Origin: Escherichia coli
GTDB lineage: Bacteria > Pseudomonadota > Gammaproteobacteria > Enterobacterales > Enterobacteriaceae
Direction: 5' to 3' (one strand)
Assembly: GCF_003334405.1 (NCBI RefSeq)
Contig: NZ_QOWM01000006.1
Length of the DNA: 64,000 nt
A program made the translations under genes and the position numbers. Position 1 is the first letter of the stretch; each line of letters opens with the position of its first letter. The notes beneath the pieces were generated by a model. That model saw nothing but the letters and a program-made list of their open reading frames with translations, did no database searches and was not told the origin of the DNA. Below are positions 15,581 through 15,949 of the stretch, one piece after another.

Positions 15581-15949
15581 AAAAATCCTTTAATAAAATT
15601 CCATTAGTCAGACTACATGTTTGAAGAATGACTATTCATGACACAAATAGGAGAAACAAATGTTAGATATTAATGAGCAATGATATTTGTTACCCAAATT
15701 TACAACCATTGTTCATTAGGTCGCCTATTGTGCACTTTAGAAGCTTTTGAACAAATTAAATTTACTTAATTCAAAATTAAGTAAAAATAAGTTCACAAGT
15801 GCAATTGGTTAGGGTATGGAGATGGGATTGATATTTATTTATAGGAAGTTATATTATTTCCGCAAAGAGATGTTTAAACTAAAATCGTAATTAAGGAAAG
15901 AGATGAGATATGATTTTCAGAAAATATTTATATTCGCAATATAAATAAA
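15581..15949 (-). promoter_or_regulatory. AT-rich control region upstream of yadN fimbrial operon
   Basis: About 370 bp, roughly one-third GC by eye; contains perfect 10-bp inverted repeat TTTACTTAAT-N5-ATTAAGTAAA (15761-15785); no coding ORF. Confidence 0.5.

Follow-up and report, generated by a model that had tools for sequence, protein, structure and literature searches.

The folK–yadN spacer

The window, that is, the whole 64,000-nucleotide stretch of Escherichia coli K-12 (MG1655-type) DNA analysed here, carries on its minus strand the genes htrE, yadV/ecpD, yadN, folK and pcnB. Three features frame the region of interest:

14996–15580, minus strand: yadN, the major subunit gene, which opens the yad chaperone-usher fimbrial operon
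15581–15949: folK–yadN intergenic spacer, 369 bp, 26.6% GC, published as an H-NS-bound “promoter island”
15950–16429, minus strand: folK, which closes the upstream pcnB-folK unit, with transcription heading to the repeat described below and to yadN

The non-coding region upstream of yadN, which had been put at about 370 bp and one-third GC, measures 369 bp and is closer to one quarter GC. It is 100% identical to the spacer of MG1655-type genomes (15397–16097 corresponds to NC_000913.3 156,700–157,400), in which RefSeq annotates no feature within 15581–15949. Panyukov and Ozoline (2013; PMC3661553, Table 1) list the entire spacer as the H-NS-associated island 156927_379 yadN(−)/folK(−), and it shares with such islands the binding of H-NS, the AT-richness and the look of horizontally acquired DNA. 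The concept of an island is, however, one of promoter-like signal density, and the conserved inverted repeat described here is neither mentioned nor explained by it.

The spacer is single-copy (median one place per genome, maximum two), so an origin as a REP/BIME, MITE or mobile element was rejected. Across E. coli genomes, the folK stop is a sharp step in divergence when 14996–16429 is compared: matches to folK only are 89–100% identical, and the families of spacer plus yadN are just 55–90% alike, which indicates allele replacement via recombination at the fimbrial locus. Two natural insertions were also seen, one of ISApl1 within the folK–yad spacer of strain 20Ec-P-124 and one of IS1 in or beside yadN of strain MDK6L1.

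A perfect inverted repeat upstream of yadN

The original prediction had singled out a perfect 10+10 inverted repeat with a 5-bp spacer at 15761–15785, about 180 bp from the yadN ATG. The repeat is there, with its nearest edge 181 bp upstream of the ATG, and it is slightly larger than described because the inner pair T15771/A15775 also matches:

15761–15785 (MG1655 157,064–157,088): perfect inverted repeat TTTACTTAATT-CAA-AATTAAGTAAA, 11-bp arms, 3-bp spacer; the segment reads TTTACTTAATTCAAAATTAAGTAAA
15753–15793: extended imperfect repeat, 19+19, 84% complementary, which we read as the footprint of a longer ancestral repeat

Chance was gauged with dinucleotide-preserving shuffles of the 369-bp spacer, counting perfect repeats with a spacer of at most 10 bp. 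Arms of at least 10 bp arose in 2.2% of the shuffles, and arms of at least 11 bp in 0.72% (n = 5000) and 0.33% (n = 3000), giving P of about 0.003–0.007. The K-12 repeat is unusual even for such AT-rich DNA, somewhat beyond what chance would give, but taken alone not overwhelmingly so. A 22-nt partial direct copy of the palindrome (77%), ACTAAAATCGTAATTAAGGAAA, lies 114 bp away at 15878–15899; it was dropped as a relevant element, since it is not conserved in other alleles.

The repeat across yad alleles

The 5,426 complete E. coli genomes contain several deeply diverged allele families of the folK–yadN spacer. The family counts below are approximate, and one to three sequences were inspected per family:

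K-12-like alleles, about 1,300 genomes: perfect 11+11
AR_0077-like alleles, about 167 genomes: perfect 15+15
BY63-like alleles, about 44–71 genomes: perfect 17+17
UTI89/CFT073/Nissle/E2348 family, about 561 genomes: perfect arms of 13 to 16
B1/BL21-like alleles, about 1,550 genomes: one pair broken
ST131 family, about 1,070–1,230 genomes: 5–6-bp core left
remaining alleles, including the O157 type (other subunit gene, 280-bp spacer), about 500–700 genomes by subtraction: no repeat in the single O157 locus inspected

At the homologous position, AR_0077 carries TTAAATTTACTTAAT-TCAAG-ATTAAGTAAATTTAA (15+15), BY63 carries AATTTAAATTTACTTAA-ATCAGGG-TTAAGTAAATTTAAATT (17+17) and UTI89/Nissle carries TTAATTTTACTAA-ATATGAAAA-TTAGTAAAATTAA (13+13), and the repeats of E2348/69, PG57 and 2012C-4502 are each a perfect 16+16. 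The observed arm length was matched by none of 3000 shuffles in five of the six non-K-12 allele types, and by 2 of 3000 in the sixth, UTI89/Nissle. It is these longer perfect versions that exclude chance, and they make the K-12 repeat a decayed copy, in which one arm has TT where AR_0077 and BY63 have AA, so that the outer pairs are broken. Decay has gone further elsewhere. In the B1/BL21 type, one pair is mutated on both sides to a T/C non-pair, leaving 7+3 bp; the ST131 family retains only ACTTAA-N7-TTAAG(T/C); and E. fergusonii has a further decayed, ST131-like copy. The alleles thus form a natural series from intact to decayed, running from a perfect 17 bp through 13 bp and 11 bp to broken.

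The proposed check, whether the palindrome is conserved in orthologous yad loci, is positive for its position, which is kept in most alleles. Its form varies: the arms elsewhere are 13–17 bp long and carry compensatory changes, and the B1/BL21-type and ST131-type alleles, about half of the complete genomes, are without most of the repeat. Outside this group, the synteny of pcnB, folK and a fimbrial subunit gene is kept in E. albertii, Salmonella and Pseudocitrobacter, in loci found via protein clusters, and the homologous repeat is absent from them. The folK-fimbrial spacer of Salmonella enterica (locus L022, 806–1200) is 21% GC and has overlapping AT-only inverted repeats 83–125 nt past folK, for example TAAATTAAAT-TTC-ATTTAATTTA, whose sequences bear no relation to the repeat of E. 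coli. A scan of metagenomes with the DNA pattern returned mostly chance matches, along with 14 yad loci that added no new allele family, and a contig search with YadN returned one E. coli locus only.

Conservation and covariation of the arms

The 71-nt block around the repeat aligns without a gap across 13 alleles. Between the deep families, the arms are 76–88% identical, against 20–53% for the flanks and 29–57% for the centre, a figure for the arms that is possibly inflated by their near two-letter (A/T) composition. Ranked by conservation among the 25-nt blocks of the spacer, the palindrome comes third, after the yadN ribosome-binding region and the block just past folK. Its core, TTTACT/AGTAAA, is invariant in 10 of the 13 alleles and degraded in those of B1, ST131 and E. 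fergusonii.

Pairing was analysed in the register set by the palindrome, counting 20 pairs over the 13 alleles. In register, 77.7% of the cells pair, compared with 29–55% when the partner is slid by 1–3 columns. Five pairs have changed on both sides (16/56, 18/54, 20/52, 23/49, and 30/42), and the path of one pair can be followed from T-A in 2012C-4502, through a mismatch in UTI89/Nissle, to G-C in E2348/69 and PG57. Covariation gives a score of 0.165, versus 0.120 ± 0.020 in shuffles, 6 of 500 of which reach this value; the independent compensatory events behind it are few, about four or five.

Promoter context and regulation of yad

Yad fimbriae aid tissue colonisation in extraintestinal pathogenic E. 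coli and are turned on by serum. In a 2026 study of these fimbriae, a 200-bp fragment of the CFT073 yadN promoter in a reporter (pMK1lux-Pyad) was weak in the wild type, rose about 100-fold without H-NS, and responded to serum by induction. The forward primer of that reporter, CTTAATTTTTTAAAGTTAATTTTAC, runs from a point some 14 bp upstream of the repeat into its first arm, and the reverse primer lies about 27 nt ahead of the yadN ATG, so the repeat is wholly within the fragment and close to its upstream end. Since the fragment is active, its promoter lies downstream of the repeat or over it, and in that construct the repeat is therefore not in the 5′ UTR of a more distant promoter.

H-NS represses yad in K-12, CFT073, and EC958, the effect in the last two having been shown in the 2026 study. 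EC958 belongs to ST131 and has a broken repeat; H-NS repression and serum induction of yad persist in it. Beyond repression by H-NS, the authors did not identify the mechanism of the serum switch; their paper contains neither “palindrom” nor “inverted repeat”, and the repeat is unmentioned in the yad literature that we found. Additionally, yad is reported to respond to temperature and, via ArcA, to anaerobiosis, and not to be phase-variable; yadN goes up 2.4-fold on SlyA overproduction, and LmiA has an indirect effect on yad, reported to occur without binding to the yadN promoter.

A position-weight scan gives two candidate promoter pairs on the yadN strand, between the repeat and yadN, at positions that recur across alleles:

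−35 at 15754–15749 and −10 at 15732–15727, minus strand: candidate pair TTGTTC-16-CACAAT, its −35 abutting the extended repeat
15697–15724, minus strand: second candidate pair GCGACC-16-TAAATT, its −10-like hexamer at 15702–15697

In 12 of the 13 alleles, the 12 best candidates include one at the position of the first pair. For the second, the position of the −10-like hexamer recurs in 9 of 13 (as TATACT, TGTAAT, or AATACT in other alleles). A consensus scan for terminators and promoters made no terminator call at the repeat, and its promoter-like sites were on the plus strand only. The σ70-like sites TTGATA-16-TATATT and TTTCCG-17-TAAAAT, at 15828–15885 on the plus strand, face folK, to which they are antisense, and fit the published “promoter island”; the part of the plus-strand Cappable-seq list (wild type) that was available contains no start site in the spacer region.

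Between the repeat and yadN, at 15670–15735, there is a broad block of moderate conservation (0.6–0.77), probably the core promoter plus further sites; TTAATGA is invariant in it, and the palindrome GTGCAC is conserved. At 15660–15683 on the plus strand, antisense to the yadN leader, lies a mini-ORF, AGGAGAAACAAATG...TGA (MLDINEQ*), that has a good Shine-Dalgarno sequence. Its Shine-Dalgarno sequence is gone in the BL21 allele, so the mini-ORF is probably due to chance.

A possible operator-like element

As the worn copy of a longer inverted repeat that many E. coli strains have kept in this place, the palindrome probably serves the Yad fimbrial promoter as a small control element. Four readings of what it does were ranked, none of them established. 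Foremost, though only tentatively, we place an operator-like DNA element whose symmetry may be kept partly by template switching; after it come a neutral quasi-palindrome, an RNA hairpin, and, last, a symmetric promoter.

As an operator-like element, the repeat would work in the form of duplex DNA, as a cis element with dyad symmetry in the upstream regulatory region of yad. Both of the conserved TTTACT(N)A half-sites would be recognised by a symmetric protein, as one dimer or as two, and candidates for it would be H-NS, nucleating at the repeat, or an antagonist of H-NS. The yadN core promoter would follow directly downstream of the half-sites, placing them at about −40 to −80 if TTGTTC/CACAAT is that promoter, and binding would tune the strength with which the H-NS-silenced operon is released. 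The over-long perfect arms would be a by-product, with template switching at replication repeatedly re-symmetrising the repeat, and the K-12 copy would be one that has partly decayed. A conserved core, a fixed spacing, and a site directly upstream of promoter-like elements in an active fragment point to a cis-acting DNA element. Protein binding, the promoter served, and the direction of any effect are inferred.

The original prediction had seen in the repeat the geometry of a dimeric regulator's binding site, and this is partly supported. The dyad symmetry (11+11 in K-12 and 13–17-bp arms in six other allele types), the near-invariant half-site, the fixed spacing, and the position just ahead of promoter-like elements, within an active promoter fragment, all agree with it. 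Against it stand the long covarying arms, the failure to find either a motif match or a second copy, and the broken repeat of about half of the genomes, EC958 with its persisting yad regulation among them. The spacing speaks less clearly: the conserved half-site cores lie 19 bp apart centre to centre, not one helical turn and unusual for a simple dimer, and a distance of 10 bp separates the inner K-12 arms (CTTAATT), whose UTI89-type counterparts are not palindromic. The underlying feature is larger than the view from K-12 showed. The SlyA motif TTAN6TAA is absent from the K-12 spacer, no match was seen by eye to the consensus sequences of ArcA, FNR, CRP, Lrp, IHF, CpxR, and TyrR, and the BolA motif (YYGCCAGH) is irrelevant here. 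No further copy of TTTACT-N13-AGTAAA, with up to one mismatch allowed, turned up either in the window or in a 150-kb stretch that includes the sfm, elf, and yeh operons. Furthermore, symmetric compensatory changes are not predicted by selection on a sequence-specific operator alone; such a pattern is typically found in hairpin-forming repeats, or where template switching homogenises the arms, more than in a plain dimer operator.

MlrA, for example, binds a long AT-rich palindrome upstream of csgD, and the yad repeat is like such operators of dimeric or tetrameric bacterial regulators in its dyad symmetry, the fixed spacing and conserved core of its half-sites, and its promoter-proximal place at a surface-adhesion operon. 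It differs from them in having no known cognate protein or motif match, in the 19 bp between its half-site centres, in arms that covary and far exceed the length needed, and in being dispensable as an element in many lineages.

A narrower version, that the repeat is the docking site of a factor that lifts the H-NS silencing of Yad on contact with host serum, we consider improbable. If true, the decay of the repeat in ST131 and B1 would explain strain differences in induction; serum induces yad 15-fold in CFT073, which has a perfect 13-bp repeat, and 4-fold in EC958, where the repeat is degenerate, an anecdotal comparison of two strains. Conserved, symmetric and contained in a serum-responsive 200-bp fragment, the repeat offers mutagenesis a well-defined and inexpensive target.

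Possible neutral homogenisation by template switching

The reading placed second, and in itself rather unlikely, is that the repeat is an AT-rich quasi-palindrome with no function, in which template switching copies arm onto arm, so that the compensatory changes are mutational and not selected. The locus would then hold an ordinary quasi-palindrome of AT-rich DNA. Several observations fit: the lineages differ in arm sequence and yet the arms are perfect, the changes being symmetric; the repeat has been lost from about half of the genomes with no obvious consequence; and the searches made found no motif, RNA family, or second copy. The mechanism itself is documented. Perfect repeats of MG1655 are over-conserved, which Lavi et al. 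(2018; PMC5941160) attribute to template switching, and a single event can create or repair a stem (Monttinen and Löytynoja, 2022; PMC8794818).

What this account does not predict is the conservation of the sequence. If arm were copied onto arm without bias, lineages should diverge no more slowly there than elsewhere; instead, the arms are far more alike than their flanks, and the absence of indels over 71 nt is likewise not expected from unbiased homogenisation. Inversion of the spacer, a hallmark of template switching, was not seen when the allele spacers were compared by eye. The yad repeat therefore resembles template-switched quasi-palindromes in its lineage-specific perfect arms, its symmetric multi-base changes and its being an intergenic E. 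coli repeat, but it departs from them in arms that are conserved over the flanks, which the mechanism alone leaves unexplained, and in its lack of spacer inversion. It is a clear and small example of an E. coli inverted repeat with covarying arms, and as such can help to separate selection on structure from homogenisation by template switching.

A possible RNA hairpin past folK

Less likely still, we believe, is that the repeat works at the level of RNA, as a hairpin in the transcript of folK/yadN sense that would be a weak factor-independent terminator or a 3′-end stabiliser. Read-through from pcnB-folK would be stopped or capped about 165 nt past folK, insulating the silenced yad promoter, and the repeat does sit between a housekeeping operon and a promoter. 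The sense strand of K-12 folds with moderate stability, at −8.5 kcal/mol (47-nt fragment, z = −3.0), or −11.8 in a 51-nt context; values of −9.8 to −14.9 kcal/mol in other alleles also favour a hairpin, the full span across alleles being −3.8 to −14.9, and the K-12 stem is followed by UUUAAUUUGU, with 7 U in 10. The excess of in-register over slid pairing and the five pairs changed on both sides also favour a structure. In the ST131 family, what is left of the core pairing consists of G-U wobbles, confined to the folK/yadN-sense strand (columns 24–31 of the core hold 7 wobble cells there versus none on the other strand), a bias that goes back to two or three mutational events; over the whole helix, wobbles number 8 versus 6, with no clear strand bias.

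The stem, on the other hand, contains a single G-C pair, and the terminator scan makes no call. Past the stem, U makes up 7 of 10 nt in K-12 and 5 of 10 in AR_0077, but just 2–4 of 10 in BY63, UTI89, E2348/69, PG57, and 2012C-4502. A hairpin does not need the core sequence to be conserved. A scan of 15300–16200 on both strands against Rfam 15 gave no match up to E = 10, and the Term-seq tables of Adams et al. (2021), in the part available, list no folK or yadN 3′ end, an absence that is weak evidence. The repeat does share with intrinsic terminators a stem-loop past an operon, a U-rich stretch after the stem in K-12, and compensatory changes that preserve pairing; it differs from them in a stem of nearly pure A-U, in that the longest stems are without a U-tract, and in being uncalled by the scan. 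A canonical intrinsic terminator as the conserved function is unsupported, given the one G-C pair, the missing scan call, and a U-rich tail confined to the K-12 type.

Possible promoter symmetry, and a rejected invertible switch

Improbable, too, is a reading in which the symmetry is that of promoter elements, with TTTACT as a −35-like hexamer on both strands and TAAATT/TAAAAT as −10-like hexamers in the opposite arm, making a potentially bidirectional promoter, as is common where AT-rich DNA is silenced by H-NS. In its favour, the spacer is among the published promoter islands, TAAATT is found in the K-12 arms and TAAAAT in those of the UTI89 type, and the repeat is entirely inside the active CFT073 fragment; but TTTACT is separated from the −10-like hexamer by 15 bp, a poor spacing, the pair does not rank high in the position-weight scan, the −10-like hexamer is lost in ST131-type alleles, and the Cappable-seq list mentioned above offers no plus-strand start in its available part.

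An invertible switch was rejected on geometry: yad resembles fim in that a chaperone-usher fimbrial operon has inverted repeats where it is controlled, but those of fim lie on either side of an invertible segment of 314 bp, whereas the yad arms are 3–9 bp apart, have only folK and fimbrial genes as neighbours with no recombinase gene adjacent, and belong to an operon reported not to vary in phase.

A second inverted repeat at the folK end

A second perfect 10+10 repeat, TATTTATATT-CGC-AATATAAATA, which had escaped the original prediction, lies at 15925–15947, 3 nt past the folK stop. Only its yadN-proximal arm is within the non-coding block that ranks highest for conservation in the spacer (15914–15938, 0.87), and in UTI89-type alleles this block pairs with a different partner (GAATATA-TT-TATATTC). 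The repeat at 15925–15947 may be the true folK 3′-end hairpin.
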